Source: a virus | Virus record (IMG/VR): IMGVR_UViG_3300037339_000380 | Span: 2,844-66,843 of that record | DNA length: 64,000 nucleotides | Strand: one strand, 5' to 3' | Shown here: one piece after another, positions 3-44,065 of the stretch | Layout of the letters: each line of letters starts with the position of its first letter | Numbering within the stretch: position 1 is the stretch's first letter | Program-made: the position numbers and the translations under genes | Notes under the pieces: model-generated | What the model saw: only the letters and a program-made list of their open reading frames with translations | What the model was told of the DNA's origin: nothing | Database searches by the model: none

Positions 3-86
3 ATCAAATCACACGTTAAGTTCCGCGTCAGTAAGGACGCTAAATTCCTTGGTAAGCTCAAAGTAACCGAGGATGGGATCGAGTAA
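3..86 (+). CDS. 3' end of an upstream ORF, truncated by the window edge (...IKSHVKFRVSKDAKFLGKLKVTEDGIE*)
   Basis: Open frame from the window start to TAA at 84-86, overlapping the folE start as other genes in this operon do. Confidence 0.5.
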   Translation: MKSHVKFRVSKDAKFLGKLKVTEDGIE

Positions 87-2314: not shown

Positions 2315-2315
2315 T

Positions 2316-4615: not shown

Positions 4616-5709
4616 AAAAACCAACTGTAATCTTAGACTCTGGTGCCTACACAGCATTCAGAAAAGGAAAAACTATTGACATAGATGAATATGCCGAATT
4701 CATAAAAAAGCATGGTCATCTATTTGCAGGTTGTTTCAATTTGGATTCTATTGGCTCAGGTATGAAAGAAAGTAGGGATAAGTCCAAAGATAAGGATGTA
4801 GTTACTACTGCAAAACAAAGTTTTCTTAATTGGATGTACCTCCGAAAGCAAGGGATTGACACAATTCCTATCTATCATATGGGAACAAACCAAGTGTGGT
4901 TACGCAAATATCTTGAACGGACTGACTATGTAGGTATAGGGGCAATAGCAAACCTAAACACCTCACAACGTTTGATGGGACTGTCTGCTCTATGGAAAAA
5001 ATACTTTGTTGACAAAAATGGAAACCCGATAGTAAAAGTTCATGGATTAGGATTAACGGCAATACCAATGATGGTACGCTATCCCTGGTACTCCGTTGAC
5101 AGTTTTACTCCTGTAATATCAGCCGTGTGGGGAAGCATCCTTTTACCTAAATTGAACAGTGAAGGAATCCCTTCCTACTTCAATATGTCCATTAATAAGG
5201 TATCAGACCAGGGGGATCATAAGGATAATATGGAAAACAGTTATCTAAATGTTCCTGTACGAAATAAAAAGTTCTATGAAAAAATGTTTACTGAACATGG
5301 GTTTGAACTTGGTCAGATAACAGGTCAGGAAAAGCATGATAGAAGAGGTAAGAAAGGAGAACAAGCAAGGAAACCTCCAAAACTTCCTGGATTTAATTTA
5401 GTAAATCCTTCCGATCCAAACATAAAAACATTGGCAAACAGTTGGGAAATAAGGATGAAATGGAATCTTATCATGTGGAATCATTTGAAAGAAAGGATGC
5501 CTATTTATCCAAGACCGTTTGTTGATGAGGATGATTACTGGAAAGAAGAAATAACTGGCAAAATAAACTGGTGGATGAATATGGGAGTGTCAACAATAAC
5601 GCACTTGGACATATTCAAATCTGTAAAACCTGCTCATGATATATTAATCAGCTATGCATACATGACAGATGGTATTTATAACAAAATATTTAAAGAGTAT
5701 ATGAAATGA
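4612..5709 (+). CDS. dpdA: Phage DpdA / tRNA-guanine transglycosylase-like DNA deazaguanine insertase
   Basis: ILDSGAY, NLD.IG, IPIYH.G, YVGIG, VHGLG and PWYSVDS motifs; co-located with folE and queC. Confidence 0.8.
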   Translation: MKKPTVILDSGAYTAFRKGKTIDIDEYAEFIKKHGHLFAGCFNLDSIGSGMKESRDKSKDKDVVTTAKQSFLNWMYLRKQGIDTIPIYHMGTNQVWLRKYLERTDYVGIGAIANLNTSQRLMGLSALWKKYFVDKNGNPIVKVHGLGLTAIPMMVRYPWYSVDSFTPVISAVWGSILLPKLNSEGIPSYFNMSINKVSDQGDHKDNMENSYLNVPVRNKKFYEKMFTEHGFELGQITGQEKHDRRGKKGEQARKPPKLPGFNLVNPSDPNIKTLANSWEIRMKWNLIMWNHLKERMPIYPRPFVDEDDYWKEEITGKINWWMNMGVSTITHLDIFKSVKPAHDILISYAYMTDGIYNKIFKEYMK

Positions 5710-6119
5710 GATCATACCTGTCTGCAGGATTAATTGTCCTACAGGGATATAAAATATTGTTGGTGCATCCTAGGAACGCTTCCTGGTGGGGAACATATTC
5801 TATACCTAAAGGGATTGTTGAACCTGGGGAATCTCCTTGGGATACTGCAATACGGGAAACAGAAGAGGAAACAGGTGTAAGAATTGATAAACGTGATACG
5901 TTTTGTGCAGGACAAATTTGGTATCCAAACAGTAAGAAATCCGTTCTATACTTTTTGGCATATCCAAAAGAACATATTGAATTAAGATTTAAACCAAATG
6001 ATGAAGTCGATTGGGCAGGGTTTGTGTCAAAAGCAGACGCTCTGCCTAGAATATTTCCTCCCCTTAAGGAGGTACTTTTATATGTTAAAGAAATGAAAAG
6101 AACAAGAAAACCAAAATGA
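5706..6119 (+). CDS. Nudix hydrolase
   Basis: Nudix box PKGIVEPGESPWDTAIRETEEETG. Confidence 0.93.
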   Translation: MRSYLSAGLIVLQGYKILLVHPRNASWWGTYSIPKGIVEPGESPWDTAIRETEEETGVRIDKRDTFCAGQIWYPNSKKSVLYFLAYPKEHIELRFKPNDEVDWAGFVSKADALPRIFPPLKEVLLYVKEMKRTRKPK

Positions 6120-6784
6120 AAAGGACAATTCTTCCAATTACTCCATTATTTGACATTCCCAAGTCAGAGAGAATTACTAATCAGGGAACAACTACATTAA
6201 AGAAAGATGTAGAAAGAATACTCCTTCCAGAATTAAAAAAGTTTGGATATGAGGGTAAGTTAATCAATTATAAGGAAGTAGAAAAAGTAAGAACAAAAAA
6301 CGTTTATTATGAAGAGGGTAAGGGCAAACCAAGTATTCCTCCCAAGGATTTATTCTTACATGAAACTTCAGGGTTCTTTCTAATGGTACAGGAACGGGGT
6401 AGAAAATCCCCCATACTATTGATGAAACCCTTTGTAAGACCTACTATTGATGATGTTACTGATATTCCAAGACTTAACTTGGAAACTGAAACAGTTCGAG
6501 GTATGATGACTTATGCAGTACCTGAAGCAAGAATAAAAGCCATATTGCATAGTGTATCAATCTTAAACCTGCATTTCATAATAATGACTGAAACAAAACA
6601 ATTTTGGATAGGTAGATTTGCTGATATTCCTGAGAACCTTTATTTTCTAACTTGGAGACATCAGAAAGGAGTATTGGATAGGTTGGCTGTAAAATCCAAA
6701 GCACATGAAACAGGACAATTTCATAGTACTAAATCAAGGTTAGCAAATGATTTGAAACTTTATATGTATCCTAAAAAATCATAA
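6116..6784 (+). CDS. Hypothetical protein (222 aa)
   Basis: ATGA-coupled ORF in the operon; no motif recognised. Confidence 0.7.
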   Translation: MKRTILPITPLFDIPKSERITNQGTTTLKKDVERILLPELKKFGYEGKLINYKEVEKVRTKNVYYEEGKGKPSIPPKDLFLHETSGFFLMVQERGRKSPILLMKPFVRPTIDDVTDIPRLNLETETVRGMMTYAVPEARIKAILHSVSILNLHFIIMTETKQFWIGRFADIPENLYFLTWRHQKGVLDRLAVKSKAHETGQFHSTKSRLANDLKLYMYPKKS

Positions 6785-6786
6785 AT

Positions 6787-7815
6787 ATGATAGTAAACAA
6801 AGATCAATTACAAAAGGCTTTGGAAATTGTAAAGCCAGGACTTGCCAACAAAGAACAGATTGAGCAGTCAACTTCCTTTGCCTTCATAAAGGGCAGGGTC
6901 ATTACTTACAATGACGAGATAAGTATTTCCCATCCCGTAAAAGGATTAAATCTTGAAGGGGCTATATTGGCTGAGAACCTGTACAAGTTCTTAACCAAGA
7001 TAAAAAAGGAAGAGATAGAACTTGAACTTGTGGATAACGAAATTGTACTTACCTCAGAAAAAGCTAAGGCAGGTCTTCTGTTACAAACAGAAATTAAACT
7101 TCCATTGAAGGAAGAGATAGCAGAGAAAAGCCAATGGCATCCCCTACCAGAAAACTTTGTACATGATGTTGCTTTTTCTATGACTGTTTGTACTAAAGAC
7201 ATGAGTCGTCCAGTTTTAACCTGTGTTCATGTAACTAAAGCAGGTTATATTGAAGCAAGTGACAGTTACAGAATTGTCCGTTGTGATTTAGGTTCCCCTA
7301 TGCCAGTAAACACTTTTTTATTACCCTCTATATCCGCAGTAGAAGTGGTTAAGATAAAACCTATTGAAGTAGCAAGTGGAAGAGGATGGGTTCATTTTAA
7401 AAATGAAGAGAAAACGATTATGTCATGTCGTATATTTGAAGATAAATATCCTCCTACAACAGGCTTCTATACCGAAGAAGGAGTTAGAGTTATCCTTCCC
7501 AAAACAACAGAAGAAATTTTGGGAAGGGCTCAAGTCTTTTCAAAGAGAGATCATTTATTGGATGAAGAGATATCCATTACAATCGAGAACAAGACATTTT
7601 TAATGGAATCCCGTTCTGATACAGGTTGGTTCAAAGAAAATGTTCCAATAAAGTATGATGGGGATCTAATCAGATTTGAAATAACTCCTTACCTGTTAAA
7701 AGGAATACTATCTGAAACACGTGAATTTAAATACGCAAAAGATAAACTGACTTTCCGAGGGGAAAGATGGTTTTATGCTTCTATGTTGAGACAAACCAAG
7801 TCAAAGAAACAATAA
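6787..7815 (+). CDS. dnaN: DNA polymerase III beta-like sliding clamp
   Basis: ~340 aa; SRPVLTCVHV, ASDSYRIV and SCRIFEDKYP correspond to the beta-clamp RpiLtGv, ATDghRL and srlieg.yP motifs. Confidence 0.8.
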   Translation: MIVNKDQLQKALEIVKPGLANKEQIEQSTSFAFIKGRVITYNDEISISHPVKGLNLEGAILAENLYKFLTKIKKEEIELELVDNEIVLTSEKAKAGLLLQTEIKLPLKEEIAEKSQWHPLPENFVHDVAFSMTVCTKDMSRPVLTCVHVTKAGYIEASDSYRIVRCDLGSPMPVNTFLLPSISAVEVVKIKPIEVASGRGWVHFKNEEKTIMSCRIFEDKYPPTTGFYTEEGVRVILPKTTEEILGRAQVFSKRDHLLDEEISITIENKTFLMESRSDTGWFKENVPIKYDGDLIRFEITPYLLKGILSETREFKYAKDKLTFRGERWFYASMLRQTKSKKQ

Positions 7816-9062
7816 TGGAAGGCTTCTTTACAAAAAAGGAAACAGAATCAAAATCCCGACCACAGGGTAAAAGAATATCCTGCGTATCTTGTGGGTTATA
7901 TGGGAATTGTCAATCCCCACGAATGGCTCCATATGGTAACTTTAAAAGAAAGATATTAAATATTGGAGAGGCTCCTGGAGAAGTGGATGATAAATATGGT
8001 AAGCCCTTCCAAGGTAAGGCTGGAAAGATGTTGCAAAGAATGTACGATGATTTGGACATTGATTTATTTGAGGATTGTGTCAATATTAATGCAGTAAATT
8101 GTCGTCCGACAGATGCCCAAGGTCACAACAGAGCCCCTTCTAACGCAGAGGTCGATTGCTGCCGAAGACGGGTACTTCAAACAATAGAGGAGTACAAGCC
8201 CAAGTTAATAATGGTACTCGGTTCTTCTGCCCTGTACAGTCTGATTGGGCACAGGTGGCGTAAGGATCTAAGTGGGATAAGTAAATGGCGTGGATTTCAG
8301 ATACCTGACCAGGATTTTAAAACTTGGATTTGCCCTACATTTAGTCCAAATTACATAGAAAAAGCAATAAATAACCCAATGTTCCAAAACAAAGGAGGTG
8401 TTATTGAAGAACTGTTTTGGAAACAAGATTTAGATTATGCTTTTAATTTGATAAAAAATAATGTTCCTGTAACCAAATACGTTGAACCTGAGATAGAGAT
8501 TATTGAAGACCTGTCTGTATTGAGTAAAATAAATTATGAAAGTGCGTTTGACTATGAAACAACAGGTTTAAAACCACACGCTGAAGGACACAGAATAGTT
8601 TGTATATCAATTGCTGACACAGAAAATCATGCTTATGCCTTTCTTTTACCTAAAACGAAAAACAAAAGACAACCCTTCATAGATTACCTAACTAACCCTG
8701 GATTACGAAAAGTAGCACAAAACCTTAAGTATGAACACACCTGGTCTAAAGTAAGATTGGGTGTGGATGTACAAGGTTGGGAATGGGATACTATGATAGC
8801 CACTCATGTAATGGACAACAGACCTGGAATAACAGGGTTAAAGTTTCAAGTATATGTACAATTTGGTATTGTTGATTATACCAGTGACGTAGACTCCTAT
8901 TTAGGTTCATCAGATGCAGAAGGGGCCAACACAAAAAACAGGATCCTTGAGTTGTTAGACAAACCTGGGGGTAAAGAAGCTTTATGTAAATACTGTGGGC
9001 TTGACAGTATTTATGAATTACGATTAGCAAACTTACAAAGAATGAATTTATTACCATTTTAA
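7815..9062 (+). CDS. Family 4 uracil-DNA glycosylase-like domain fused to a PolA 3'-5' exonuclease (N-terminal half of a split DNA polymerase)
   Basis: CxxC, IGEAPG, GKPFQGKAG and NAVNCRP (UDG4); AFDYETTGL, AQNLKYE, DTMIA and YCGLD (Exo I-III). Start moved to ATG 7815, which overlaps the clamp stop. Confidence 0.88.
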   Translation: MEGFFTKKETESKSRPQGKRISCVSCGLYGNCQSPRMAPYGNFKRKILNIGEAPGEVDDKYGKPFQGKAGKMLQRMYDDLDIDLFEDCVNINAVNCRPTDAQGHNRAPSNAEVDCCRRRVLQTIEEYKPKLIMVLGSSALYSLIGHRWRKDLSGISKWRGFQIPDQDFKTWICPTFSPNYIEKAINNPMFQNKGGVIEELFWKQDLDYAFNLIKNNVPVTKYVEPEIEIIEDLSVLSKINYESAFDYETTGLKPHAEGHRIVCISIADTENHAYAFLLPKTKNKRQPFIDYLTNPGLRKVAQNLKYEHTWSKVRLGVDVQGWEWDTMIATHVMDNRPGITGLKFQVYVQFGIVDYTSDVDSYLGSSDAEGANTKNRILELLDKPGGKEALCKYCGLDSIYELRLANLQRMNLLPF

Positions 9063-9063
9063 T

Positions 9064-9876
9064 ATGACAGCAAATAACCTAACAATCTGCATTGACGCTC
9101 CTTGTAACAAGAAGTGTCCTTACTGCATTTCTAATATGACTTTTTATCCAAAACCAGATACTTCCCTATTTGGTAGAAATATAGGAAAAGCAGTTAATAT
9201 GGCACAGATGGCATCTGTTAGCAGTGTCCTTATCTCCTCCAAGGGAGAACCATTGCTTAATATAAATGCTATTACTTTCTGTTGTGTTATGTTTGCCGAT
9301 TTCCCGTTAGAAATACAAACCAAAGGACTCCTGCTTACTCCCGAACTAATCATGAAACTACACAATCTGAGAATAAATACAATAGCTATCTCAGTAGAGA
9401 AGTATGGTGATTTGTTTGACTTTAAACATTACAAACTATGCAATGATTTAGGAATAAATATTAGAATTACCGTTGTTCTTTCTGATCTCTGGAGTCCTCC
9501 AAGTGGATATGATTTCTTGGCTGACTGTAATCAGCTTGGAATAAAACAAGTAACCTTCCGAATGTTATCTATTCCGACAAAAGAACTTACTACGGCAAAG
9601 AGTCTGAAGACTATTGAATGGATTGAGGTACATCAGATAAATCAGGAAAAACTGGCTATGTTTCTGGAACCACTCCACTCATATGAAAAGGAAGAAAATC
9701 TTGTAAGAAAACTGTCCTTTGGTCCTTCTGTCTATGAAATGGAAGGTGTAGCAGTTACCACAATGCCATATTGCATACAGGAAAATAATAACACAGAAGA
9801 TATAAGGTCATTGATTTATCATCAGGATGGCCATATGTACACATCATGGGATAAGAAAGCATCAATACTATTTTAA
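9064..9876 (+). CDS. Radical SAM protein
   Basis: CNKKCPYC, ISSKGEPLL and IQTKG. Confidence 0.85.
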   Translation: MTANNLTICIDAPCNKKCPYCISNMTFYPKPDTSLFGRNIGKAVNMAQMASVSSVLISSKGEPLLNINAITFCCVMFADFPLEIQTKGLLLTPELIMKLHNLRINTIAISVEKYGDLFDFKHYKLCNDLGINIRITVVLSDLWSPPSGYDFLADCNQLGIKQVTFRMLSIPTKELTTAKSLKTIEWIEVHQINQEKLAMFLEPLHSYEKEENLVRKLSFGPSVYEMEGVAVTTMPYCIQENNNTEDIRSLIYHQDGHMYTSWDKKASILF

Positions 9877-9877
9877 T

Positions 9878-10096
9878 ATGAAAAACGAAAAATTTAATAT
9901 GCTAAGATCAATCGGAGTTTTTAAAGATTGGCATCGTTCAGGGAAAGCTTCTGATAAAACAGAAAAAAGAAAAATGGAAAGAAGTCATGGTAGAATGGTC
10001 TGGATATCCAGAGACATATCAATACTTCCAATGACAGGACTACAATCTAATCGTGGCAGGGGAACTTATATAAGACAAAAACATGGTGTCTTATGA
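9878..10096 (+). CDS. Small basic hypothetical protein
   Basis: ATG at 9878 just after the upstream stop; ATGA overlap with the polymerase gene. Confidence 0.55.
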   Translation: MKNEKFNMLRSIGVFKDWHRSGKASDKTEKRKMERSHGRMVWISRDISILPMTGLQSNRGRGTYIRQKHGVL

Positions 10097-11505
10097 ACTA
10101 TTTAGACCCAGAAATGTACTCAGGATACCAATTGTTACATGATGGTATCTTAGCACTTGCACGTGCTGAACAACAAGGGCTTCGGGTAGATATGGAATAC
10201 CTGGAAGGTAAAAAGAAACATATCACCAGAGAAATTGAAAAACTGGAAGAACAGTTCAAGAAAACCAAATTCTTTAAACACTGGCAACATACAGTAAAAG
10301 GGAATGTTAATATTCATTCCAATGTACAGTTAGCTAATTTCCTCTACAAGATCAAAGGGATTAAAATAGAAAAAGAAACGATCTCAGGACAAGGAGCGAC
10401 CGACGAAGAGGCGTTAGGTCAGATGGGGATTCCCGAATTAACTAATTTGGTTAGGATAAGAAAACTTAAGAAAGTACGGGATACTTATTTACAAGGATTT
10501 GACAGAGAACAAATTGATGGATACATCCATCCTTTCTTTAACTTACATTTGGTAAAAACATATCGTTCCAGTTCAGATCATCCTAACTTTCAAAATATAC
10601 CCAAGCGAGATGAGGAAGCAATGAATATTGTTAGGAGAGCCTTGTTCCCACGTCCCGGACATCAGTTACTTGAACTCGACTATTCTGGACTTGAAGTACG
10701 TATTGCTGCCTGTTATCATAAGGATAAGACAATGTTACGTTATATAAAAGATCCTACGACAGATATGCATACGGATATGGCACAACAGTTGTTTATGATT
10801 GACAATTTTGATAAAGACATACCCTCTCATTATGTTTTAAGACAGGCAGCAAAAAACTCATTCGTGTTTCCAGAGTTTTACGGGGATTATTATAAAAACT
10901 GTGCAATAGGAATGGCTTGTGGTTGGGGTAAACTTCCTCAGGGGAAGTGGGGACCTGGACAGGGTATTGATATAACAGAAACAGAAACATTGTCTGACCA
11001 TTTTAGAAAGAAAGGAATTAAATCACTTGATGACTTTACCGATCATGTACAAAAGATAGAAAAGGATTTCTGGAGTAATCGTTTTGCTGATTATGCCAAG
11101 TGGAAAGAGCTTTGGTGGAAACAGTATAAGAAAACAGGTGTTGTCAAAATGTTTACAGGATTTCAATGTACAGGAGTTATGTCTAAGAATGACGTAATAA
11201 ACTATCCTGTTCAAGGTGCTGCCTTTCATTGTTTACTTTGGTCTTTTATTGAATTAGATAGAGTTATGACAAAAAACAAAATGGATTCTAAACTTGTTGG
11301 ACAGATACATGACTCCATTCTAATTGACATTAATCCTAATGAATTAGAAGATATAATCAAACTTGCATACAAAGTAACCTGTCAAGATCTACCAAAGGCT
11401 TGGTCTTGGATTATAGTTCCGTTAGATATTGAAATAGAACTTGCTCCTATAGATGGCAGTTGGGCAGAGAAAGAGAAATATGAATATAAATATTTCTTTG
11501 TGTAA
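10093..11505 (+). CDS. polA: Family A DNA polymerase, polymerase domain (C-terminal half of split PolA)
   Basis: TYRSSSDHPNFQNIP, motif A DYSGLEVR, motif B RQAAKNSFVFPEFYG, NYPVQG and motif C QIHDS. Confidence 0.95.
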   Translation: MNYLDPEMYSGYQLLHDGILALARAEQQGLRVDMEYLEGKKKHITREIEKLEEQFKKTKFFKHWQHTVKGNVNIHSNVQLANFLYKIKGIKIEKETISGQGATDEEALGQMGIPELTNLVRIRKLKKVRDTYLQGFDREQIDGYIHPFFNLHLVKTYRSSSDHPNFQNIPKRDEEAMNIVRRALFPRPGHQLLELDYSGLEVRIAACYHKDKTMLRYIKDPTTDMHTDMAQQLFMIDNFDKDIPSHYVLRQAAKNSFVFPEFYGDYYKNCAIGMACGWGKLPQGKWGPGQGIDITETETLSDHFRKKGIKSLDDFTDHVQKIEKDFWSNRFADYAKWKELWWKQYKKTGVVKMFTGFQCTGVMSKNDVINYPVQGAAFHCLLWSFIELDRVMTKNKMDSKLVGQIHDSILIDINPNELEDIIKLAYKVTCQDLPKAWSWIIVPLDIEIELAPIDGSWAEKEKYEYKYFFV

Positions 11506-18159: not shown

Positions 18160-18332
18160 TTCAGCAACTTCTCAAGTTCTTAAAAAGAAAGAATAAATCA
18201 ATAGTACCTCATAAAGTTGATGGGTATTATAAGGATATTAAAATAGGGGAATCCAAAGAAGGATGGGATGAGTTTATTAAGACAAAAGAAGGATTGATTA
18301 AAGTTCCACCAGACAGAATAGAAATACACTAA
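18156..18332 (+). CDS. Small hypothetical protein (58 aa, not in the ORF track)
   Basis: MIQQLLKFLKRK...IEIH*; ATGA overlap upstream and TAATG overlap downstream fill the gap exactly. Confidence 0.6.
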   Translation: MIQQLLKFLKRKNKSIVPHKVDGYYKDIKIGESKEGWDEFIKTKEGLIKVPPDRIEIH

Positions 18333-19273
18333 TGATTAAATCACTCAAAATAAAGAACTTTCAAAGTCATGCTCAAACAGAACTTAACTTTTCCAAAGGA
18401 GTCAATGTCATCATTGGAGAAACAGATGCAGGAAAAACGGCGATTATACGAGCTTTGCGTTGGCTTATTTGGAACCGACCATCTGGAGATTCCATCCGTT
18501 CTAATTGGGGGGGAGACACATCTGTTGAGCTTACCATCAAAGACAATATCATTCGTAGGGATAAAGATAAAAAGGATTCATACGTGTTGGTTAATACCAA
18601 CGGGAAAGATATTACATTTAAGGCTATTGGTACTTCAGTTCCGGAGGAAATCAAAAGTGTTCTTAATATCAACGAAGTAAATCTACAAACTCAATTAGAA
18701 CCTCATTTTCTGTTGAGTAAAACATCAGGGGAAGTTGCCCAATACTTCAATAAAGTTGCTAAACTTGACATTATTGACAGAACAACTGACAACATCAATA
18801 AAGCTATACGTGATTTAAAATCTGACATCAAGTACAAAGAGAATGATATAAAATCAGAGAAAGAGGAAATAAAGAAATTTGATTACCTTGATAAGATGGA
18901 AGCTGAGATTGAGGTATTAGAGGATATTGACAATCATTTAACCAGTGTCAAAAACAAATATAGAAAACTACAAGAACTGGTTGCCTCAGTCAAAACAACA
19001 GAAAATAAAATAGTAAAAGCCTCCCAGAGTTTAAAGATGGAAAAGAAGGTAAACGTGTTGTTACAATTATACAAGGACAAGAAAAACGTAGAGAGGGATA
19101 AAATGCTGTTAAATCAGGCAATTTCTACTATAAACAGTACAACTGTATCCCTTAAAAACAATGAGGCAAGACACACACGATTGCTTGCCCTGTTTCAAAA
19201 GAACTTTCCTGATATTTGTCCTCTTTGCGATCAACCTGTAAAACATAAACATGGAAAGAACGAAAGTAAATAG
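18332..19273 (+). CDS. sbcC: SbcC/Rad50-like ATPase, N-terminal half
   Basis: IKNFQSH, Walker A GETDAGKT, Q-loop and coiled coil ending in a CPLC zinc hook. Confidence 0.9.
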   Translation: MIKSLKIKNFQSHAQTELNFSKGVNVIIGETDAGKTAIIRALRWLIWNRPSGDSIRSNWGGDTSVELTIKDNIIRRDKDKKDSYVLVNTNGKDITFKAIGTSVPEEIKSVLNINEVNLQTQLEPHFLLSKTSGEVAQYFNKVAKLDIIDRTTDNINKAIRDLKSDIKYKENDIKSEKEEIKKFDYLDKMEAEIEVLEDIDNHLTSVKNKYRKLQELVASVKTTENKIVKASQSLKMEKKVNVLLQLYKDKKNVERDKMLLNQAISTINSTTVSLKNNEARHTRLLALFQKNFPDICPLCDQPVKHKHGKNESK

Positions 19274-20222
19274 TAAGCAAATATTAAAAATACGAGAAAG
19301 GCAACATGAAGTAATTGCCCAAATTCCTGATGAAATTTTATTTGGGCATAAGGCAAAAAAGAAACCTGACTTGATACTTACAAGTGACTGGCACCTTCGG
19401 GAAGATACACCTACCTGTTTTACAGGAGATTGGAATTATGAGCAATGGAAAGCCGTAGAATTTGTCAGACATTTGCAATATAAATATAAAAGCCCTGTAA
19501 TCCATGCCGGTGATTTATTTCATCATTGGAAACCTTCTCCTGCTCTTATATCACAGGCTTTGTTCTTCTTACCAAATGATTTTTATACTATCTACGGACA
19601 ACATGACCTTCCTCAACATAACTGGGAATTAAGAACAAAGAGTGGATTACATACTTTAGAAGTAGCAGGTAAGATAAAAGTATTAAAGGGATATCATTAC
19701 GGGCAACCTATTTATACAGGTGCTGGAAGTGATAACAGATTTGGTATAAAAATGCTTGTTTGGCATCATCTAACATACATTAACCCACCTTTCCCAGGAG
19801 CAACAGGAGGAGAAGCACAATCTATATTAAGAAAATATCATCAGTTTGATTTAATAGTAACTGGAGACAACCATCAATCATTTTCTACCAGAAATGTTAA
19901 TAACACTCTTGTTAATCCTGGCAGTTTAACCCGTCAAACGGCAGATCAGATAGACTTTAAACCAAGGGTTTACTTATGGTACGCTGATACAAATACCGTA
20001 GAACCCGTATTCATACCGATACAAAAAGGAATGATTACTCGTGAACATATTGAAAAAAAAGAGGAAAGAGATAATCGTATCGAAGCATTCATAAGTAAAT
20101 TAGATGAAGAATGGGGTTTATCCTGGTCTTACCCAGAAACGTTAGAACAGTTCTTTGCGAAGAATAAAACGAAGGATTCAATTAAAAACATCATTTATAA
20201 AGCAATGGAAAATGTAACTTAA
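19251..20222 (+). CDS. sbcD: SbcD/Mre11-like metallophosphoesterase nuclease
   Basis: SDWH, AGDLF, GQHD, HH, GDNH and NPGSL.R. Confidence 0.9.
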   Translation: MERTKVNSKQILKIRERQHEVIAQIPDEILFGHKAKKKPDLILTSDWHLREDTPTCFTGDWNYEQWKAVEFVRHLQYKYKSPVIHAGDLFHHWKPSPALISQALFFLPNDFYTIYGQHDLPQHNWELRTKSGLHTLEVAGKIKVLKGYHYGQPIYTGAGSDNRFGIKMLVWHHLTYINPPFPGATGGEAQSILRKYHQFDLIVTGDNHQSFSTRNVNNTLVNPGSLTRQTADQIDFKPRVYLWYADTNTVEPVFIPIQKGMITREHIEKKEERDNRIEAFISKLDEEWGLSWSYPETLEQFFAKNKTKDSIKNIIYKAMENVT

Positions 20223-20869: not shown

Positions 20870-21054
20870 TGTCTGAAAAAGAACTAATACGAATAATTGA
20901 TTTATTCTTAAAAGTAGAATATTCATTGGGAGTTTATGAAGGAGTAGAATCAGCTTATTATCTATCTGAGGAGGATGGTAAAGAATTAAATATTTTAATT
21001 AAAAAGTATCAACATGACAGAAAAAGACTTACTGGAATTGAAAGAACAGATTGA
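20869..21054 (+). CDS. Small hypothetical protein
   Basis: TAATG-coupled ORF. Confidence 0.5.
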   Translation: MSEKELIRIIDLFLKVEYSLGVYEGVESAYYLSEEDGKELNILIKKYQHDRKRLTGIERTD

Positions 21055-21247
21055 GGATGCAAAAACAGAAACCTCAGAACTGAAAGGACATCTAAAGGCT
21101 CAAATGAAACAGTTGAAAGATACTTGGAAGTGTAACACAGTCAAAGAAGCCGAGAAAATGTTAGTGCAAATGGAAAAATCCATTAAATCGTATAATGAAA
21201 GTATTGAACAAGGATTAAAAGAACTGGAGGAAGAACATGGATCGTAG
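21014..21247 (+). CDS. Small coiled-coil protein, possibly a partner of the split SbcC
   Basis: Heptad-rich throughout. Confidence 0.6.
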   Translation: MTEKDLLELKEQIEDAKTETSELKGHLKAQMKQLKDTWKCNTVKEAEKMLVQMEKSIKSYNESIEQGLKELEEEHGS

Positions 21248-21857
21248 AAACTTTTTTAAAGGAATGTTTGGTGCAGCGGTAGTAGCCTTTATGCCAAAAA
21301 TTGTGGTTGAGCAAATAGAGAAAGTTCCAATAAATGAAATAACACCAGTACCCGTACTTAAAAAACCTAAGCAAGTAATATTTCATCTAGGTGAGAAATG
21401 TATGTACTTGTATGATGACAATCAATTAATTGCTGGTTCTACTCTATTTGATCTTGAATTCCAACGAAAAGTAATATCCCTCCCAACATGGGAAGGATAT
21501 GATCAATATGTTATGGGGGAATCAGAATGGAAAATAGCCGTAGAACAATTACGTTGGTTTAATTCTGAAACAGGATTACGTTATTTTGAAGAGAGTAAAC
21601 CATTGAAATGTGTCATTCATTACAAAGGCACAGAGTATATGGGGTATGTTCTTATAACAGAGTGCAGACTCTCTTGTGGTATTGATACTCCTATTCAAGA
21701 AGATGTAATGCTAACAGGGACAGGATCATTAATAATGACAACAAAAGATGAACAATTGGATTCAAGCGTACAGAAACAAATTGGAGAGAGCAAAGGGTCA
21801 GTTAATGCAATTGGAAAGCTCTATAACAACTCTCCAAGAGGACTTAAAGGAAAATAA
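21237..21857 (+). CDS. Twin-arginine signal peptide fused to a tail-tube-like domain
   Basis: MDRRNFFK plus a hydrophobic stretch; EGYDQYVMG..EWKI and YMG.VLITE......D.....V.LTGTG resemble siphovirus major tail proteins. Confidence 0.6.
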   Translation: MDRRNFFKGMFGAAVVAFMPKIVVEQIEKVPINEITPVPVLKKPKQVIFHLGEKCMYLYDDNQLIAGSTLFDLEFQRKVISLPTWEGYDQYVMGESEWKIAVEQLRWFNSETGLRYFEESKPLKCVIHYKGTEYMGYVLITECRLSCGIDTPIQEDVMLTGTGSLIMTTKDEQLDSSVQKQIGESKGSVNAIGKLYNNSPRGLKGK

Positions 21858-22377
21858 AAGGAGTTTGATTAGGCATGAAAAGGCTCATGTTATTGTACGA
21901 GAAGTAGGTATAAGAACGCAAGAACAATTACAATATCATATATCAGACATAACCAGTCTGGCTCTTGAAGCAGTATTCAACGATCCTTATAACCTGACTG
22001 TTGAATTTGTGCAAAGGCGCAACAAAACAGAATGTGATTTGTACTTTGTCCGGAAAGACGAGAAAGTAGATCCTGTCTCCGCTTCCGGAGGTGGAGCTGT
22101 TGACGTTGCGTCCTTTGCTTTAAGAATAGCCAGTTGGAATATGTTACATCCAAAAACAAGAAATGTAATGTTACTGGATGAGCCTTTTAAGCATTTGAAA
22201 GGAGTAGATGCAAACCAACGGGTACTGAATATGATTAACGAAATATCCCGTAAGATGAAATTACAAGTGATTATGATTAGTGATGAAAGGATACCACGGG
22301 AGGATATAATAGCTTCAGCTGATCGGGTATTTGAAGTAACAATTAAAAACGGTAAAAGTAAAGTGGAGGTAATATGA
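21748..22377 (+). CDS. sbcC: SbcC/Rad50-like ATPase, C-terminal half
   Basis: Coiled coil, then signature ASGGG, ALRIA and Walker B LLDEPFKHL. Confidence 0.9.
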   Translation: MNNWIQAYRNKLERAKGQLMQLESSITTLQEDLKENKRSLIRHEKAHVIVREVGIRTQEQLQYHISDITSLALEAVFNDPYNLTVEFVQRRNKTECDLYFVRKDEKVDPVSASGGGAVDVASFALRIASWNMLHPKTRNVMLLDEPFKHLKGVDANQRVLNMINEISRKMKLQVIMISDERIPREDIIASADRVFEVTIKNGKSKVEVI

Positions 22378-22634
22378 AAACATTATTTATTCTTATTTGT
22401 TTTATTCTATTTTCCTGTACCAAATCGTCAACAGATACAGGAACTAATTGCTACCTTTGTAGGGCAACCTGTACAGGAAGTGGTTACTGCCCAGCACCAG
22501 AAGAAGCTCAAATTTGTGATAGAACATCAGAAGAAATAAAACAATTAGAACAATCTGGAACACGTACTTACACCTTAGAAGAAAATGGAAAAACGGTGAC
22601 AATCATAAAAACTCTAATATGTAAAAAACAATAA
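22374..22634 (+). CDS. Cys-rich lipoprotein
   Basis: MKTLFILICFILFSC lipobox and six further Cys. Confidence 0.7.
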   Translation: MKTLFILICFILFSCTKSSTDTGTNCYLCRATCTGSGYCPAPEEAQICDRTSEEIKQLEQSGTRTYTLEENGKTVTIIKTLICKKQ

Positions 22635-23436: not shown

Positions 23437-23811
23437 ATGATCCAATCAGAGGTAATAAATAAGCTCGCCCGTGAATGCTGTCTAGCGTTAGGAGACTTCG
23501 ATCACTTTACCACTGTCCATACCTATATTCAAATGGCCTTATCTATTGGTATAGAGCATTACACAAAGGACATGGAAGAGATTGTGGCTATGTATAGGGA
23601 CGGAGTAGAAGCAGGAAGGTTTAAAAGTATTCGTGAAGCAGAACGTAAATTAGGCATTGATCGTAGAAATATAAATCAAGTATTACGAGGAGCTGCACAT
23701 TCTGCCGGAGGGTTGATATTTATAAAAACCAAAGACTATGAACTCATTGAACGTAAAAAAGAGAGAGGGCAATCCGTACCCCCTCTCTACCTGACACAAA
23801 CTCAAACCTAA
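23437..23811 (+). CDS. NUMOD1-type HTH DNA-binding protein
   Basis: RFKSIREAERKLGI...NI..VL.G...SAGG..F. Confidence 0.75.
   Translation: MIQSEVINKLARECCLALGDFDHFTTVHTYIQMALSIGIEHYTKDMEEIVAMYRDGVEAGRFKSIREAERKLGIDRRNINQVLRGAAHSAGGLIFIKTKDYELIERKKERGQSVPPLYLTQTQT
23755..23788 (-). terminator. Intrinsic terminator ending the late (-) transcript
   Basis: Stem AGAGAGGG/CCCTCTCT (23762-23769 and 23781-23788) followed on the - strand by a U6 tract; lies where the two strands converge. Confidence 0.7.
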
Positions 23812-23828: not shown

Positions 23829-24404
23829 CTATTTGAATTTGAACAACGTTCCTCCTACTTTTACAGTCATACCTTCCAATCCAAAATTATATCCTACCCC
23901 ACCATTCCAATTTGGTGAGATATAATTTATTTCAATTCCAGTATAATCCAAGTCTTTCAGTAAAAAGTTCATACCCGCGGTTATGTATCTGCCGTAGGCA
24001 TAGTCAGTATATTCATTATGTATTACTGTTTGAGGTCTGAGAATTTTGTAGGTAAAGACATTACTTATAGGCTGATTTTGTGAGATGACATCTTTTATTA
24101 ATACTGACAAAGAACTGTCTTGCCACGATCTTTCATAGTAGTGCATGGCAAAATAATCCTTCAGTATTGCTGCCGTATCAACATCTCTAAATAACGTATC
24201 ATATACTATTGAATCCTTCCCAGCAAGATAATAAGGTATCGTATCAGGAATGTAGTAAGAAACAGTATCCGTAATGACAACGGTGTCAGAGGCGATGTCA
24301 GGGCATTTGTTAAGCCGTGGGTACATAGTATAACCTACGTACCCACAGCCTAGCAGGGCTATGATTACAAGCCCTACCACAATATAGTTAGCTGTCTTTC
24401 CCAT
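23829..24404 (-). CDS. N-terminally anchored membrane protein (spanin-like or other envelope protein)
   Basis: N-terminal TM, many D-T/S-hydrophobic motifs and a beta-rich aromatic C-terminus. Confidence 0.6.
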   Translation of the reverse strand: MGKTANYIVVGLVIIALLGCGYVGYTMYPRLNKCPDIASDTVVITDTVSYYIPDTIPYYLAGKDSIVYDTLFRDVDTAAILKDYFAMHYYERSWQDSSLSVLIKDVISQNQPISNVFTYKILRPQTVIHNEYTDYAYGRYITAGMNFLLKDLDYTGIEINYISPNWNGGVGYNFGLEGMTVKVGGTLFKFK

Positions 24405-31312: not shown

Positions 31313-34300
31313 TTAGTAAATTTTATTTTTCTTATTACCTTTCCTTAAAATACCAATAAGTTTATCCTGCCCTATTTCAAATATAACCTCTCCTTCAAGT
31401 ACTGTATTTTCCTTTTCCATTCTATTGAGAGGTATCACCTTTTCTCCTGATGAGAGTAAAGCGGGAAAACTATCACTTGGATATCCAGGGGGAACAACAC
31501 CCCCCATAGCCATCTTAGCAATAGAAGAAGTTTGATTCTTTATCAAATCTGTATAAGATGTGCCAAACATTTTCTTCATTTTCTCCTCTGGTATAACAAC
31601 CTCTCCAGAGGTCAGCAAAGCAGGGAATGAGTCGTTTGGAAATCCCTCTGGTACTATTCCCCCTTCTGCCATCTTCGTTGCCTGCTTTGCCTTGATTATT
31701 GCGGCAATACCTGCCATTACTGCTCCTACTCCTATTCCTATTGCCATTAGTCCAAGTGGCCAAGGAAGTTTGGCTGCATTCTTTACAGTGCTTGCAACAG
31801 CACTACCTGCGTCAGCTGATGTTTTAGCCTCCGTAATAGGAATTGAAGTAGCCTCAACTGCGGATAATGCTTTCTCAACTGGAATGGCTGCTGCACTTGA
31901 TACTGTTTGTATTCTCTTTGCTTCACCTTGAACTACCTCTGCCATGGCTAAACTTTGAGTAACTGCTGTAGCTCCTTGTTTGGCGGCATTACTTGTTTCT
32001 AATGCTTTCGATCCAATCTTTTCAATTGCTGAAACAGTTTCAACAGTTTTACCATACTCGTTGGTAACGTCTGTCAAAACTTTCATTTTCTTTGAAGCCG
32101 CTTCTATTATAATACCACTTGGAATAAGCTCATCAGGATTGGAAAGATTCTTTCCTGAGAAATTACCAAACATACCTGCCAACCCACCTGCAGTACCTGC
32201 CCGATCAGCCTCAGGTGTTTTAATCTTCCAATTCATTTTCTTCATCCCAGCCATCAGCACAGAAAGTCCTTCGGAAACACTATCCTTCATACTCTTTGCT
32301 ATGTCCTCAGGTCCTTCAATATGACTTAATATCCCCTTCCATATCAATGTTTTGATAATAAGTTGTACTATATCTTTGAGTGTCTGTTGGAAAATGGCAT
32401 GCAAAGTATTGTTCAATCTCTCTGCAACGGTTTCTGTTTCAGTAGGACCCTCTATAAGTATGTCAAACATTTGTCCTAATGCATCTGTCGTACGATTAGC
32501 AATCTCTTCTGTATCCTTTAAAAGAGAAAGTTCCTTATATAATGTTTTAAAACCTATTGACTTACCTTTCCCCAGATTAGAAAGTTCTTGTAACTTATTT
32601 TCTAAAGCAGTTATATGCCCAGCAAATAAATCTGTACTTTCTGACAATCTATAAAAAGTACGATTCATATTTTCCAAATACTGAATACTTTGTGAATTCT
32701 GTAAATCAACCAAAGTCATTTTAACATCCTGTATCCTTTGAATTGTTCTTTTTATTTCTTCATTGTCAATAAGCTCCCCACTATAACGTCTTTTCAACAA
32801 GTCTCTCAAATACTTTTCTGAGGCTTGCAATTCAAAATTTAAAACCTCTACCTTACCAGCGACATTACCAAAAGCGTTTGCCTCAGCATTTAACATGGCT
32901 GCTGATTCTCTGTCAATTGCATCTTGAATAGCTTTATCATATAATTCTACATTCCCTTGCATCTCCTTCAACCGATTCATCTGATCTTGACTTGGATACA
33001 TTATAGTCCCTGTTTTAGGATCAGGTGTTGAAAGAAGTTTTATATATTCTTCAATTGACTTCTTATAAAACTCTAACCTTGCTGAGTTTACATCAAATTT
33101 GGGACCAAGTATAAACTTCTGCATATCAATTGAAGCAAGTCCAGAATTAAAGTCATCAAAGAATTTTTTCATATCTTTTAGACTGTCAGTCAATTCTTTG
33201 GTTTCATCTTTTGCAGACTTCTCAGCTTTTTCTGCCTGGGACAATAATCTCGCAAAATACAAAAATACTGGATTAGTTGCTCCTAATCCTGTCCTAAGAT
33301 CATCTACAGTTTTGGTATAAAGATCAACTAACTTTGCATTCTTATCAAAAGTATATCCCTGTTCTTTAGCTGACTTACCCTCAGCTTCAATTTCTTTAGC
33401 CAATACTTTTGTTGAAAGAATAAGTTGATCCATCTCATTATTGAATCCAAACGAATATCCTTTACCAGTAAAGAAATCTTTTATCTTCTGTTCTTCATCT
33501 TTTAATATCTTATTAAAATCAATAAACTTCGTTTTGAGATCATCAACTGGTATAAGAGTTTTCAATTTATCCTTCCCAATACCTAATGAACTCCAAACAT
33601 CATTACTTAACTTTGTAGAAACACCTTTTGGCATTTCTATTTCTGGTATTGTAAACCCCCCTAAAGTAGCATTTGTATTTTTGGCAGAAGTATTCAGTTT
33701 ATCTAATGAAATTGTAAGTGCATCAACTTGTTTAATCCAATCAAATTCTTTGACTTTCTTATTTGCTAACTTATCTATCCCACTATTTATTTCCCCCGTT
33801 ATATTTAAAATCTGAACTTTAGATAATGATAAATTTTTTAAATACTTCTCAACTAATTTTTCTTTTCCTAATTGTAAGAAAGCCTGATCAATTTTACCCC
33901 CACCTTCCTTTATTGCTTGATCTGCTAAAGAATAAACATCATTATAAAACTCACCAAGCATATCTGGAGCCTGCTTACCTATTACTCCAAGCACTTTATT
34001 AAATCCATTCTTAAATGCCTTTGCAGTATCTTGTTGCTTTGATGTAAGCTCTTCCTGATTAACTTTTAAAGCCATACTCAATCGTTGTGCTTTCTCAGCA
34101 TGCAAATAAGCATTGGCTATTTCCTCTACGGAATCTTTTTCTGACAACAGATTTTTTAAATATGGACCATACCTATTATTTATTTCTTCAATCGTTTTCT
34201 TTCTCTGTTCTAAACTTCTGCTCATGTCAGAGGCACGAGCAAATAATTGGGACATTATTCCAGCTTCAACAGATTGTTGTCCTGCAATATCTTTCTGAAC

Positions 34301-35938
34301 ACGATTAAACTCATTATGTTTCCTGATCAACTTGATAATGATTAGTCCTAAGGCTATTGCTCCTGCCGCGATTAAAACATATGGATTCTTTATAAGAGTA
34401 CCAAGTGCACCCCAAGCACTCTTGACACTCTTACCATACATTGTCATTGATACAACATTGGCGTCTGTTACAACTTTTAAAACACCAAAATAAACCAATA
34501 CCTTTTGAAGTAATTTACCAATAGTCATAAAGGCTCCAGCATATACATATTTTAAAGCAGAACCAATTAATGCAATTGGACCTATGGCAGCAAGTAAACC
34601 TAAGAATTTGATTATTAATTTTTGAACTCCATCACTCAGACTGTTAAACCATCTAACTAAACCATTCAAAATATTAACCAACGTTTCAAGAGCAGGAATA
34701 ATAACTTTACCAAGAGCTTCACCAAAACTAATTTTAATCAAATCCATTGTAGCCTTTAGAGAATCTAATCTCTTTTTCATCTGATCTGACTGAGCGTCAA
34801 ATGCTCTGGTTAAGTCACCACTTGCATTAGTTACGGCTTCAATAACTTGTTTATTATATTCAAAGTTATCACCCATAAGTGAAAGATCCCCAGTCATAGC
34901 ACGTATGTCTCGGAAAACAGTTTTTAAGAATGGAACACCTCCTACATCTTTTGCCAAGTCCTTTAGTTCAATAAGGACTTTCATCAATCCTCCAGGTTGT
35001 TTTAATTTTTGAATCAATCCATCAACACTAACTCCCATATCTTCTAATTCTTTACCCCCTCCTGAACCAGGTTTTAATTTGAGTAAAGAGTTGAGTACAC
35101 CTTTTAAATAAACGGCTGCATTCTGAGCACTCGCTCCTTGTAGTGACATGGCTGCCATTGTACCCGCTACCTCTTCAATTTTAACACCCAACGCTGAAGC
35201 TATTGGAAGTACCGATTGCATAGCACCAGCAAACCCTTCAGCCTCAATTGCCCCTTCACGTACTGCTGCCGTAAACACATCAGCGGCACGTTCAGCAGTA
35301 AGACCAGACTGTCGGTATGCGTTCATTGAGAAAACTAATAGTTTTGCTACGTCGGACGTCTCACCCAGTCCTGCAGTTGCCCCCTTTGCGGCAAGCTCCA
35401 CAATATTCAAGGCTTGAGCGGCATCTTTAAAGCCGGCGGATGTTACATAGTAAGAGGCTTCGGCTAATGCCTGAGGTGTCTGAGCAAGGGCTGGAGCCAT
35501 TCTCATCAATTCTTTTCTAAGACCTGCTACTGCTTGTTCTGATAACCCAACCAAGCCTACAATCTTAGCCATAGCAAAATCAAAATTCTTTGCAGTTTCA
35601 ATTGCCTGCTTTCCTGCCATCACCATTGGTGCCGTTACAACAATAGAAAACAAGTATCCAAACGTTCTCCACCTTTGAGCCGATTGGAAAATGGAAGCAC
35701 CCATCTGATCAATTGACTTTGTTGCCGTTTGTACAGCAGGAGCAACTCCCTTCATACCATTGGCTATTCCTTTACCTGTACGAGAGGCTTGTTGCTCCAA
35801 AACTGTCAAACGTTGTTGAACATCAGCGACATGCTTGGACATGCTTTTCATAGCATTTGAAAAAGCTTGCTGTGCCTGAGCAATCCCCGTTAAACGAAGA
35901 CCCAAACTGGCATACATTTGCCCTGCATCAATTGCCAT
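31313..35938 (-). CDS. Tail tape measure protein
   Basis: 1541 aa, Ala-rich and helical; phage minor-tail domain (FD.AMAKI..., AERAADVF..AVREG); follows the chaperone genes. Confidence 0.93.
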   Translation of the reverse strand: MAIDAGQMYASLGLRLTGIAQAQQAFSNAMKSMSKHVADVQQRLTVLEQQASRTGKGIANGMKGVAPAVQTATKSIDQMGASIFQSAQRWRTFGYLFSIVVTAPMVMAGKQAIETAKNFDFAMAKIVGLVGLSEQAVAGLRKELMRMAPALAQTPQALAEASYYVTSAGFKDAAQALNIVELAAKGATAGLGETSDVAKLLVFSMNAYRQSGLTAERAADVFTAAVREGAIEAEGFAGAMQSVLPIASALGVKIEEVAGTMAAMSLQGASAQNAAVYLKGVLNSLLKLKPGSGGGKELEDMGVSVDGLIQKLKQPGGLMKVLIELKDLAKDVGGVPFLKTVFRDIRAMTGDLSLMGDNFEYNKQVIEAVTNASGDLTRAFDAQSDQMKKRLDSLKATMDLIKISFGEALGKVIIPALETLVNILNGLVRWFNSLSDGVQKLIIKFLGLLAAIGPIALIGSALKYVYAGAFMTIGKLLQKVLVYFGVLKVVTDANVVSMTMYGKSVKSAWGALGTLIKNPYVLIAAGAIALGLIIIKLIRKHNEFNRVQKDIAGQQSVEAGIMSQLFARASDMSRSLEQRKKTIEEINNRYGPYLKNLLSEKDSVEEIANAYLHAEKAQRLSMALKVNQEELTSKQQDTAKAFKNGFNKVLGVIGKQAPDMLGEFYNDVYSLADQAIKEGGGKIDQAFLQLGKEKLVEKYLKNLSLSKVQILNITGEINSGIDKLANKKVKEFDWIKQVDALTISLDKLNTSAKNTNATLGGFTIPEIEMPKGVSTKLSNDVWSSLGIGKDKLKTLIPVDDLKTKFIDFNKILKDEEQKIKDFFTGKGYSFGFNNEMDQLILSTKVLAKEIEAEGKSAKEQGYTFDKNAKLVDLYTKTVDDLRTGLGATNPVFLYFARLLSQAEKAEKSAKDETKELTDSLKDMKKFFDDFNSGLASIDMQKFILGPKFDVNSARLEFYKKSIEEYIKLLSTPDPKTGTIMYPSQDQMNRLKEMQGNVELYDKAIQDAIDRESAAMLNAEANAFGNVAGKVEVLNFELQASEKYLRDLLKRRYSGELIDNEEIKRTIQRIQDVKMTLVDLQNSQSIQYLENMNRTFYRLSESTDLFAGHITALENKLQELSNLGKGKSIGFKTLYKELSLLKDTEEIANRTTDALGQMFDILIEGPTETETVAERLNNTLHAIFQQTLKDIVQLIIKTLIWKGILSHIEGPEDIAKSMKDSVSEGLSVLMAGMKKMNWKIKTPEADRAGTAGGLAGMFGNFSGKNLSNPDELIPSGIIIEAASKKMKVLTDVTNEYGKTVETVSAIEKIGSKALETSNAAKQGATAVTQSLAMAEVVQGEAKRIQTVSSAAAIPVEKALSAVEATSIPITEAKTSADAGSAVASTVKNAAKLPWPLGLMAIGIGVGAVMAGIAAIIKAKQATKMAEGGIVPEGFPNDSFPALLTSGEVVIPEEKMKKMFGTSYTDLIKNQTSSIAKMAMGGVVPPGYPSDSFPALLSSGEKVIPLNRMEKENTVLEGEVIFEIGQDKLIGILRKGNKKNKIY

Positions 35939-36762: not shown

Positions 36763-37188
36763 TTAGGTTCCAGTCCCAGAGTTAACTGTGACTTGGCCAT
36801 TAACCTTTATGGTAACATCTGCCGTAACCTTATCATCTGTTGGAATTGTGAGTGGCAACTCTGTTACAAGTCCCATAAATTCCAAAGATGTTGCATCCGG
36901 ATCTGGCAATATGATTTCATAAAGTACGTCATTGTCATCCTCGAAATCTGCCTTCATCAGGTCGTATGTATCCCTGGTAAAGTTCATAGCGAGAGTGACA
37001 GTACCACCATCACGGAATCCAGCAATGAATTCCCTGTACCCCCCGATCGAGTCAAGAGACGTAACATCAATAAAGTCTCTTGTCATACCGGGCCCGGTAA
37101 TTGAGTTCACTTCAGCGACATCAGCCCAGCCAGTAGAAGGATCATACCTTCTAAATTTTGTGCCGACACCCGCAATTGCATTGCTCAT
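36763..37188 (-). CDS. Major tail (tube) protein
   Basis: VAEVNSITGP...RD.IDVTSLDS.GGYREFIAG.RDGG (lambda gpV/TTP-like); strong AGGAGG RBS. Confidence 0.9.
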   Translation of the reverse strand: MSNAIAGVGTKFRRYDPSTGWADVAEVNSITGPGMTRDFIDVTSLDSIGGYREFIAGFRDGGTVTLAMNFTRDTYDLMKADFEDDNDVLYEIILPDPDATSLEFMGLVTELPLTIPTDDKVTADVTIKVNGQVTVNSGTGT

Positions 37189-44064: not shown

Positions 44065-44065
44065 A

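Follow-up and report, generated by a model that had tools for sequence, protein, structure and literature searches.

Why would a phage that has its own tail tube protein carry, among its replication and recombination genes, a second protein of the same fold behind what looks like an export signal? The question is raised by an open reading frame (ORF) at positions 21237-21857 (+ strand) of the window, which here means the whole 64,000-base stretch of DNA that was analysed, itself part of a 66,843-base virus record (IMGVR_UViG_3300037339_000380; completeness estimate 93%). The ORF starts with ATG and encodes 206 amino acids (aa) that comprise a twin-arginine translocation (Tat)-like N-terminus, a linker, a tail-tube-fold domain and an unconserved tail. 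Sequence profiles and predicted structure indicate that residues ~50-170 are a tail-tube-protein domain homologous to the tubes of siphophages, and the N-terminal 20-28 residues are probably a Tat-type signal kept as an anchor. The explanation that we favour, tentatively, is that an acidic tube mimic that forms rings is held in the periplasm by its uncleaved signal-anchor and would there block the DNA entry of later phages.

The ORF is a real gene. An earlier note, made from the DNA letters, had given its coordinates, strand and N-terminal sequence, and these are present exactly as described; the note had also placed the gene in the replication region on the strand opposite the tail module, and indeed its + strand neighbours are replication and recombination genes, while the - strand carries the tail module. 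A chance ORF is ruled out, as the frame is kept and full-length homologues occur in 93 clusters and at more than 40 loci. A Shine-Dalgarno-like hexamer, GGAGGA (21226-21231), can be read in the sequence with 5 nt between it and the ATG; it falls within the end of the upstream gene, whose stop is overlapped by the start of the ORF by 11 nt.

Five relatives of the protein, with 46-63% identity, were returned by a word-index search. At E ≤ 1e-3, a profile built from six sequences then picked out 93 proteins among 1.84 billion representatives, with 63 reaching E ≤ 1e-10; almost all of the 93 are 150-215 aa long and aligned from residue 1. The same profile also reached three true tail tube proteins that lack the signal (P0088, P0090 and P0098, which match phrog_1407 at 4.3e-35, 3.6e-11 and 4.3e-28). 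The family comprises at least 93 sequence clusters and comes from sediment, digester and sludge metagenomes. Its genomic setting was compared across 17 viral contigs with full or near-full copies and 25 metagenome loci, 5 of which are the same contigs, and 62 aligned sequences were used for the profile, structure and conservation work. Pfam and PHROGs hold no family for the 206-aa protein: Pfam gave nothing at E ≤ 0.1, and the match to phrog_1407, 'major tail protein', lies below the library threshold (E 0.047, residues 115-175). Among other members, P0086 matches phrog_1407 at 4.5e-5, and PF06199 is matched by 3 of the 62, with a best E of 0.11. A tblastn search of 50,697 deposited phage genomes with the protein and with the SbcD-like protein encoded nearby gave no match.

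The tail-tube-protein fold, of the TP901-1 / Phage_tail_2 type, occupies residues 53-170 (21393-21746) according to profiles and predicted structure. The comparator was the phage's own virion tail tube protein (TTP), a 141-aa protein encoded at 36763-37188 (- strand; phrog_158, 3.9e-21), whose gene is followed in the tail module by chaperones and a 1541-aa tape measure (31313-35938, - strand), with distal tail genes also present. The earlier note had aligned two segments of the ORF product, residues 77-94 and 138-163, with the own TTP by eye. Plain BLASTP between the two proteins was uninformative (E 0.53, in a different register), and both pairings were reproduced exactly by profile methods: hhalign matched the 62-sequence alignment to the own TTP with a probability of 91.8% and E 7.5e-7 (Q74-169 / T34-137), and the family profile scored it at 24.1 bits in hmmsearch. 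Against 177,635 PDB sequences, the family profile matched the monocin tail tube 8qhs_A at E 2.6e-9 and 40.3 bits, with profile positions 50-166 aligned to chain residues 22-149, and the tube of a gene transfer agent (GTA) at E 0.27; these two tubes are also the best two solved matches of the own TTP. Because hhalign, hmmsearch and the PDB profile search all reproduce it, the resemblance of the ORF product to tail tubes is, at the level of sequence profiles, well beyond chance. The note's further claim, that the protein is a paralogue of the own tail tube, was too specific. The monocin tube outscores the own TTP against the family profile, so the protein is better described, from these scores, as an old, diverged tube homologue. 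The difference in bits and a guanine-plus-cytosine (GC) fraction of 0.351 for the gene against 0.448 for the own TTP rule out a recent duplicate.

Structure prediction led to the same fold. AlphaFold2 (AF2) gave a mediocre model from six sequences, with a predicted local distance difference test score (pLDDT) of 65; with 62 sequences the mean pLDDT was 82, and blocks over residues 51-170 averaged 90-97. In a Foldseek search of the PDB, 48 matches were obtained at E ≤ 1e-3, the best being 9j1j_B (5.5e-8), and the matches listed were all tail tubes, tube-like baseplate or neck chains, tubes of extracellular contractile injection systems (eCIS) or diffocins, or DSR2-bound tubes. VIA-align superposed the model on the monocin tube 9j1j_B with Z 11.1 and a root-mean-square deviation of 3.8 over 117 aligned residues, and 107 chains reached Z ≥ 8. 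The BFVD search yielded 254 matches at E ≤ 1e-3 with TP901-1-type major tail proteins on top, and the structural neighbours of the model in the ESM Atlas were PF06199 clusters. The tube fold that had been proposed from the letters is thus borne out by sequence profiles, Foldseek and structure prediction.

The tube domain of the window protein has a net charge of -7 and a long beta-hairpin at residues 70-103. It is acidic in 61 of the 62 members (median net charge -8), and an acidic domain is usual for tube proteins. A four-copy model of residues 50-172 scored 0.72, against 0.22 for the best of three controls, a result that may reflect likeness only, since tail tubes are solved structures. For comparison, 20 of 30 proteins with solved homo-pairs attain that mark, and 1 of 23 solved singly does. 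Contact agreement among the four-copy runs was at least 86% and partner pLDDT at least 75, and the predicted contact pairs strand 139-149 of one copy with strand 69-79 of the next.

Tat signals combine a motif of the (S/T)-R-R-x-F-L-K type close to the N-terminus with a weakly hydrophobic h-region, a proline at its end and then a basic 'Sec-avoidance' residue. The ORF product begins with an n-region (residues 1-8, 21237-21260) that is conserved in the family and holds a twin-arginine-type motif, D-R-R-N-F-F-K (residues 2-8). It is followed by an uncharged, Gly/Ala/Val-rich hydrophobic stretch of 12 residues ending at Pro20 (residues 9-20, 21261-21296), with an AF2 helix over residues 3-18, and by Lys21 and a short conserved helix with V23, Q26 and I27 (residues 21-29, 21297-21323). 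Residues 30-52 (21324-21392) form a variable, Pro-containing linker of low pLDDT; across the family the linker measures 13-39 residues (median 26), with a mean Pro fraction of 0.14. The family pattern reads Met, a polar residue, Arg-Arg, any residue, Phe, Leu or Phe, and Lys, then a Gly/Ala/Val-rich uncharged stretch, Pro and Lys. R3 is conserved in 100% of members, R4 in 81%, F6 in 97%, K8 in 87%, P20 in 97% and Lys21 in 58%. Conservation in the family is highest over residues 1-28, where the mean column entropy is 1.50 bits versus 2.76 bits in the tube domain. A lipoprotein signal was considered and rejected because the N-terminal 50 residues hold no Cys.

Apart from tube models, only Tat-signal models were matched repeatedly among family members. 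TIGR01409 was matched by 17 of the 62 at E ≤ 1 and PF10518, the Pfam TAT_signal family, by 12; the TIGR01409 cut-off of 16.7 bits was exceeded by five of 16 members examined singly (P0031, P0044, P0050, P0037 and P0019). Four of the 62 matched the Tat region of a formate dehydrogenase, and 22 a copper chaperone model over the first ~25-50 residues. The only non-tube PDB match of the family profile below E 1 was the 28-residue signal peptide of CueO (9e04_H), aligned to positions 1-20 at E 0.29. Furthermore, a nearly identical 23-residue N-terminus heads unrelated small phage proteins in other contigs (L002 6001-6294, L013 5001-5414, L023 859-1233 and L050 ~4072), as would be expected of a general targeting signal. 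Profile positions 1-63 are likewise shared by a 92-aa protein in locus L003 (6001-6279), encoded just upstream of the N-terminal piece of an SbcC-like protein. When longer proteins were searched by word index with residues 1-40, nothing came up at E ≤ 10, which is weak evidence either way. Contigs with unrelated small proteins headed in this manner include ones of 165 kb and 287 kb, and phage-encoded proteins with Tat-like signals may be commoner than recognised.

How might such a protein act? The earlier note had put forward an exclusion factor, a decoy or a periplasmic ring as candidate roles. On the tether explanation, a non-virion tube homologue would be made early, transcribed with the replication and recombination genes. 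Its N-terminal 20-28 residues would serve as an uncleaved Tat-type signal that tethers the protein to the cytoplasmic membrane with the N-terminus inside, and the acidic tube domain would be kept in the periplasm by the flexible, Pro-containing linker, ~13-39 residues long. Once there, tube domains could associate laterally into a ring in the manner of tube subunits. This part of the model, as far as a linker-held periplasmic domain able to form a ring, seems to us somewhat better than an even bet on the sequence features described. The available passages of PMC13673990 give a precedent for such an anchor, in that Rieske proteins are held by uncleaved Tat signals. The ring would then engage the tape-measure/tube conduit of a later phage of the same kind as it crosses the periplasm, and DNA entry would be stopped. 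This step, which would amount to superinfection exclusion by structural mimicry, is possible but doubtful; it draws on what tube subunits bind and on exclusion precedents. According to the passages available from PMC10883804, exclusion by TP-J34 Ltp is overcome by tape-measure changes, and exclusion by HK97 gp15 is escaped by hybrids that carry the tube and tape-measure genes of another phage. The proposal taken whole, that a virulent siphophage lineage exports a folded mimic of its own tube subunit through the host Tat pathway and that the tethered ring captures the conduit of a later phage, is unlikely to hold in every part.

The host is likely a member of the Bacteroidota, because the closest terminases among deposited phages are those of Cellulophaga and Croceibacter phages (35-38% identity), whose hosts are Flavobacteriia. 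TatC is present in a Bacteroides control genome and absent from the virus record itself.

Several observations weigh against the tethered-mimic explanation. The earlier note had called a Tat signal and had made conservation of the Arg-Arg pair a test of it. The sequence pattern, RRxFLK followed by a hydrophobic stretch, is there; the pair itself is found in 66 of the 83 members with a visible N-terminus (from 94 sequences, 11 that lack the region or are unrelated being left out and 3 classed by eye), but it is not fully conserved, as the second Arg is replaced in the other 17 (RK in 10, RA in 2, RS in 2, RG in 1 and RE in 2). The window's own protein matches neither TIGR01409 nor PF10518 at E ≤ 1. 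Its uncharged stretch of 12 residues, a length shared by 33 of the 62 members, lies towards the bottom of the range of Tat h-regions and would make a short membrane-spanning segment; in 22 members the stretch is 15-28 residues long. No AxA-type or other small-x-small cleavage site follows the hydrophobic stretch in the sequence, and for this reason the signal would be uncleaved. Signal peptides are seldom the best-conserved part of a protein, and an N-terminus conserved above the mature domain would be odd if it were only a signal peptide and hints at a specific partner. Finally, exclusion would be confined to the infection period. The phage looks virulent, with no integrase among the window ORFs of at least 90 aa, and no prophage copy was found with the patterns used; a scan of 185,579 species genomes, made with two N-terminal peptide patterns only, gave 286 pattern matches, none of which was confirmed.

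The same architecture would serve an exported or membrane-anchored protein with another envelope role, such as a superinfection sensor that tunes lysis in the manner of an antiholin, a factor that masks or modifies the envelope, or one that occupies the Tat receptor. The evidence for a signal, linker and folded domain applies equally here, and an N-terminus so highly conserved would be in keeping with a specific partner in the membrane. In the available text of PMC8385771, the T4 protein RI is a periplasmic antiholin believed to detect superinfection. No holin or endolysin adjoins the tube-like gene, however, and nothing links the tube fold to lysis timing, masking or Tat occupancy. We consider a role of this type unlikely, if worth keeping in view.

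The genomic context could point to a different location. The gene lies within a block that encodes a split SbcC/Rad50-like protein and its partner: an N-terminal piece that carries a Walker A head and a coiled coil and ends in a CxxC hook (18332-19273, +), an SbcD-like phosphoesterase (19251-20222, +), small ORFs, and a 77-aa coiled-coil protein directly upstream of the tube-like gene (21014-21247, +), which matches the SbcC coiled-coil region weakly and is kept in related loci. Directly downstream lies the C-terminal ATPase piece of the split protein (21748-22377, +; phrog_15167, 4.8e-20). The split of SbcC, with SbcD and small ORFs in between, is kept in more than 40 related loci. Eleven viral contigs have the order coiled-coil piece, tube-like gene, C-piece, five have coiled-coil piece, C-piece, tube-like gene, and the remaining one of the 17 ends inside the tube-like gene. 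Among the metagenome loci, 18 have the tube-like gene before the C-piece (in L026 with one small ORF between), one has the flipped order, and six end too early. The two genes therefore adjoin in 16 of 16 viral contigs with both sides visible and in 19 of 19 informative metagenome loci, 5 of these being the same contigs as viral ones.

Residues 171-206 of the ORF product, encoded with the stop codon at 21747-21857, are an unconserved tail of low confidence, and four of six close homologues end near residue 172. The last 110 nt of the ORF overlap the C-piece gene, which starts at 21748, out of frame; similar overlaps of ~40-100 nt between the two genes occur in L006, L008, L010, L029, L030, L032, L035 and L036. 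The flipped gene order in five viral contigs and in L046 rules out a frameshift fusion with the C-piece as a general feature. Immediately after the C-piece, an 86-aa Cys-rich ORF (22374-22634, +) has a lipoprotein-type N-terminus with a lipobox-like L-F-S-C. Because tblastn gave no counterpart in any related locus, it is possibly a lineage-specific protein of the envelope.

The adjacency of the tube-like gene and the C-piece in every close relative, often with overlap, could point to a cytoplasmic partnership and is a further weight against the tethered mimic. The protein would then stay in the cytoplasm, its N-terminal peptide serving for docking or for binding the membrane surface, and its tube-fold ring would aid the split SbcC/SbcD on DNA ends or in recombination. 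The adjacency persists despite the flipped order, the start and stop overlaps suggest coupled translation, and the 92-aa protein of L003 places the same N-terminus just upstream of the SbcC N-piece. That the second Arg is not invariant, and that the conservation of the N-terminus resembles that of a binding motif more than that of a signal, would also fit. On the other side, the close loci belong to one phage lineage (SbcD is 50-63% identical), so the synteny may simply be inherited. The one distant member with genomic context, in L012 (176 aa), falls in the gap between the halves of a split DNA polymerase (3405-4580 and 5912-7315) and has no SbcC nearby; that gap also contains a 140-aa ORF. 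A domain that is acidic in nearly every member is ill-suited to DNA binding, and the N-terminus matches Tat models and heads unrelated proteins. On balance a cytoplasmic role seems improbable to about the same degree as the other envelope roles. In every locus seen the gene belongs to the replication/recombination block, where it often occupies a gap between the pieces of split enzymes, and its GC fraction equals that of its neighbours.

Two further explanations fare much worse. A decoy that soaks up or blunts host immune sensors of tail tube proteins, of the DSR2 type, early in infection is very unlikely: the model aligns with DSR2-complexed tubes (8k98_A, Z 9.4; 8zc9_C, Z 9.2; and 8ygo_C at Foldseek rank 41) and the gene position suggests early expression, but these matches show the shared tube fold only, a cytoplasmic look-alike would by our reasoning be expected to trigger such sensors and not to silence them, and a conserved Tat-like N-terminus and linker would be left without a role. 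A cytoplasmic decoy also fits poorly with an export signal. Equally improbable is a minor virion or tail-tip component whose hydrophobic N-terminus enters the host membrane at infection, which the recurrence of tube-fold domains in tail-tip, terminator and baseplate proteins, some of them among the structural matches, and the predicted side-by-side association (with its caveat of likeness to solved tubes) would suit, but which is opposed by the position of the gene in the replication block in every locus and on the strand opposite the tail module, by a tail module that already has its tube protein, chaperones, tape measure and distal genes, and by a GC content that matches the early genes and not the own TTP.

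Set beside known systems, the closest likeness of the protein is to the TP901-1 / Phage_tail_2 tubes (PF06199 and phrog_1407; monocin MttP, 8qhs; GTA, 6tba), which have the same fold over residues ~50-172 at Z 10.6-11.1. The likeness consists in the profile similarity to 8qhs_A, the acidic domain, the long beta-hairpin and the predicted pairing of strands between copies. In contrast to these tubes, the gene lies outside the tail module of a phage that has its own TTP, the window protein falls below the Pfam and PHROG thresholds of the families, and it carries a 50-residue N-terminal extension, made of the Tat-like signal and linker, that is present in none of the tube proteins listed. Hcp, the tube protein of the T6SS (type VI secretion system), also has this fold and forms hexameric rings (Bacteroidota Hcp1 and Hcp2-3; 6bdc, Flavobacterium Hcp1, and 9vne_E, both at Z 8.7). 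Hcp matches rank below siphophage tubes, and the gene has no T6SS context; to our knowledge, Hcp has no signal peptide.

The N-terminus is most like that of Rieske Tat substrates, which share an RRxF(L/F)K-type motif and a hydrophobic stretch without a signal-peptidase site, which would give an N-in anchor with the folded domain outside (available passages of PMC13673990). The protein differs from these in having no cofactor domain, in the stretch of 12 residues found in about half of the family, and in the loss of the second Arg in 20%. TP-J34 Ltp, HK97 gp15 and P22 SieA are small phage membrane or surface proteins that block DNA entry, with the same site and target as those proposed for the tube mimic (available passages of PMC10883804 and PMC3952083). 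These three are expressed from prophages, whereas the phage of the window looks virulent, and none is described as a mimic of a virion protein in the passages available from PMC10883804. The Ltp, HK97 gp15, P22 SieA and T4 Imm families were absent from the Pfam, PHROG, NCBIfam, PDB-sequence and fold matches of the protein, an absence that is compatible with a like function.

The rest of the window (GC ~36%) is divided into two blocks. Bases 1-23,811 hold + strand genes for nucleotide and DNA metabolism, among them queuosine-type genes, a split PolIII-like polymerase, a clamp and clamp loader, a UvsX-like recombinase, RuvC and the SbcC/SbcD-like genes, and the remainder holds tail, head and packaging genes on the - strand. 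At 73-5709 (+), GTP cyclohydrolase, QueC-like and tRNA-guanine-transglycosylase-like genes are grouped with a Nudix hydrolase, which suggests 7-deazaguanine modification of the phage DNA. The PolIII-like DNA polymerase (phrog_17) is split in two genes, with a radical-SAM ORF (PF04055, 1.2e-8) between the halves (the three ORFs together at 7767-9062, 9064-9876 and 10093-11505, +). A 124-aa ORF at 23437-23811 (+) has a NUMOD1/I-HmuI-like DNA-binding domain, with no nuclease domain detected, and is possibly a homing endonuclease remnant or partner; homologues are found in L010, L015, L032 and L044. On the - strand, sugar-epimerase-like, methyltransferase and sialyltransferase-like genes (phrog_540, phrog_21658 and phrog_4603; 40343-46794) stand between head and neck genes, an unusual location for genes that modify glycans. 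A 191-aa ORF (23829-24404, -) has a hydrophobic N-terminus with a lipobox-like L-L-G-C site, and an 81-aa ORF from 52641 (-) also has a hydrophobic N-terminus. No lysis cassette was identified in the window.

Tube-fold proteins are otherwise known as parts of injection machines, namely phage tails, tailocins, eCIS and T6SS. Literature on Tat or twin-arginine signals, tail tube proteins and superinfection exclusion yielded, in the text available from it, no paper on a tube protein with a Tat signal, and the fold being known, it is the combination of Tat-like signal, linker and tube domain in a non-structural genomic setting that appears undescribed. The family would thus be a tube-fold protein outside the virion, expressed with replication genes and apparently directed to the envelope. 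Should the protein instead prove to be a partner of the split SbcC/SbcD, a Rad50/Mre11-type machine would have a new accessory. If export is real, the family would offer a testable case of a phage that uses the Tat pathway for a folded effector, and it would be a candidate for excluding long-tailed phages by a new mechanism, at the conduit through which their DNA enters Gram-negative cells, a poorly understood step. If the full proposal is true, it would be the first exclusion system to rely on a structural mimic of a virion part, as well as the first phage effector of this kind to depend on Tat.

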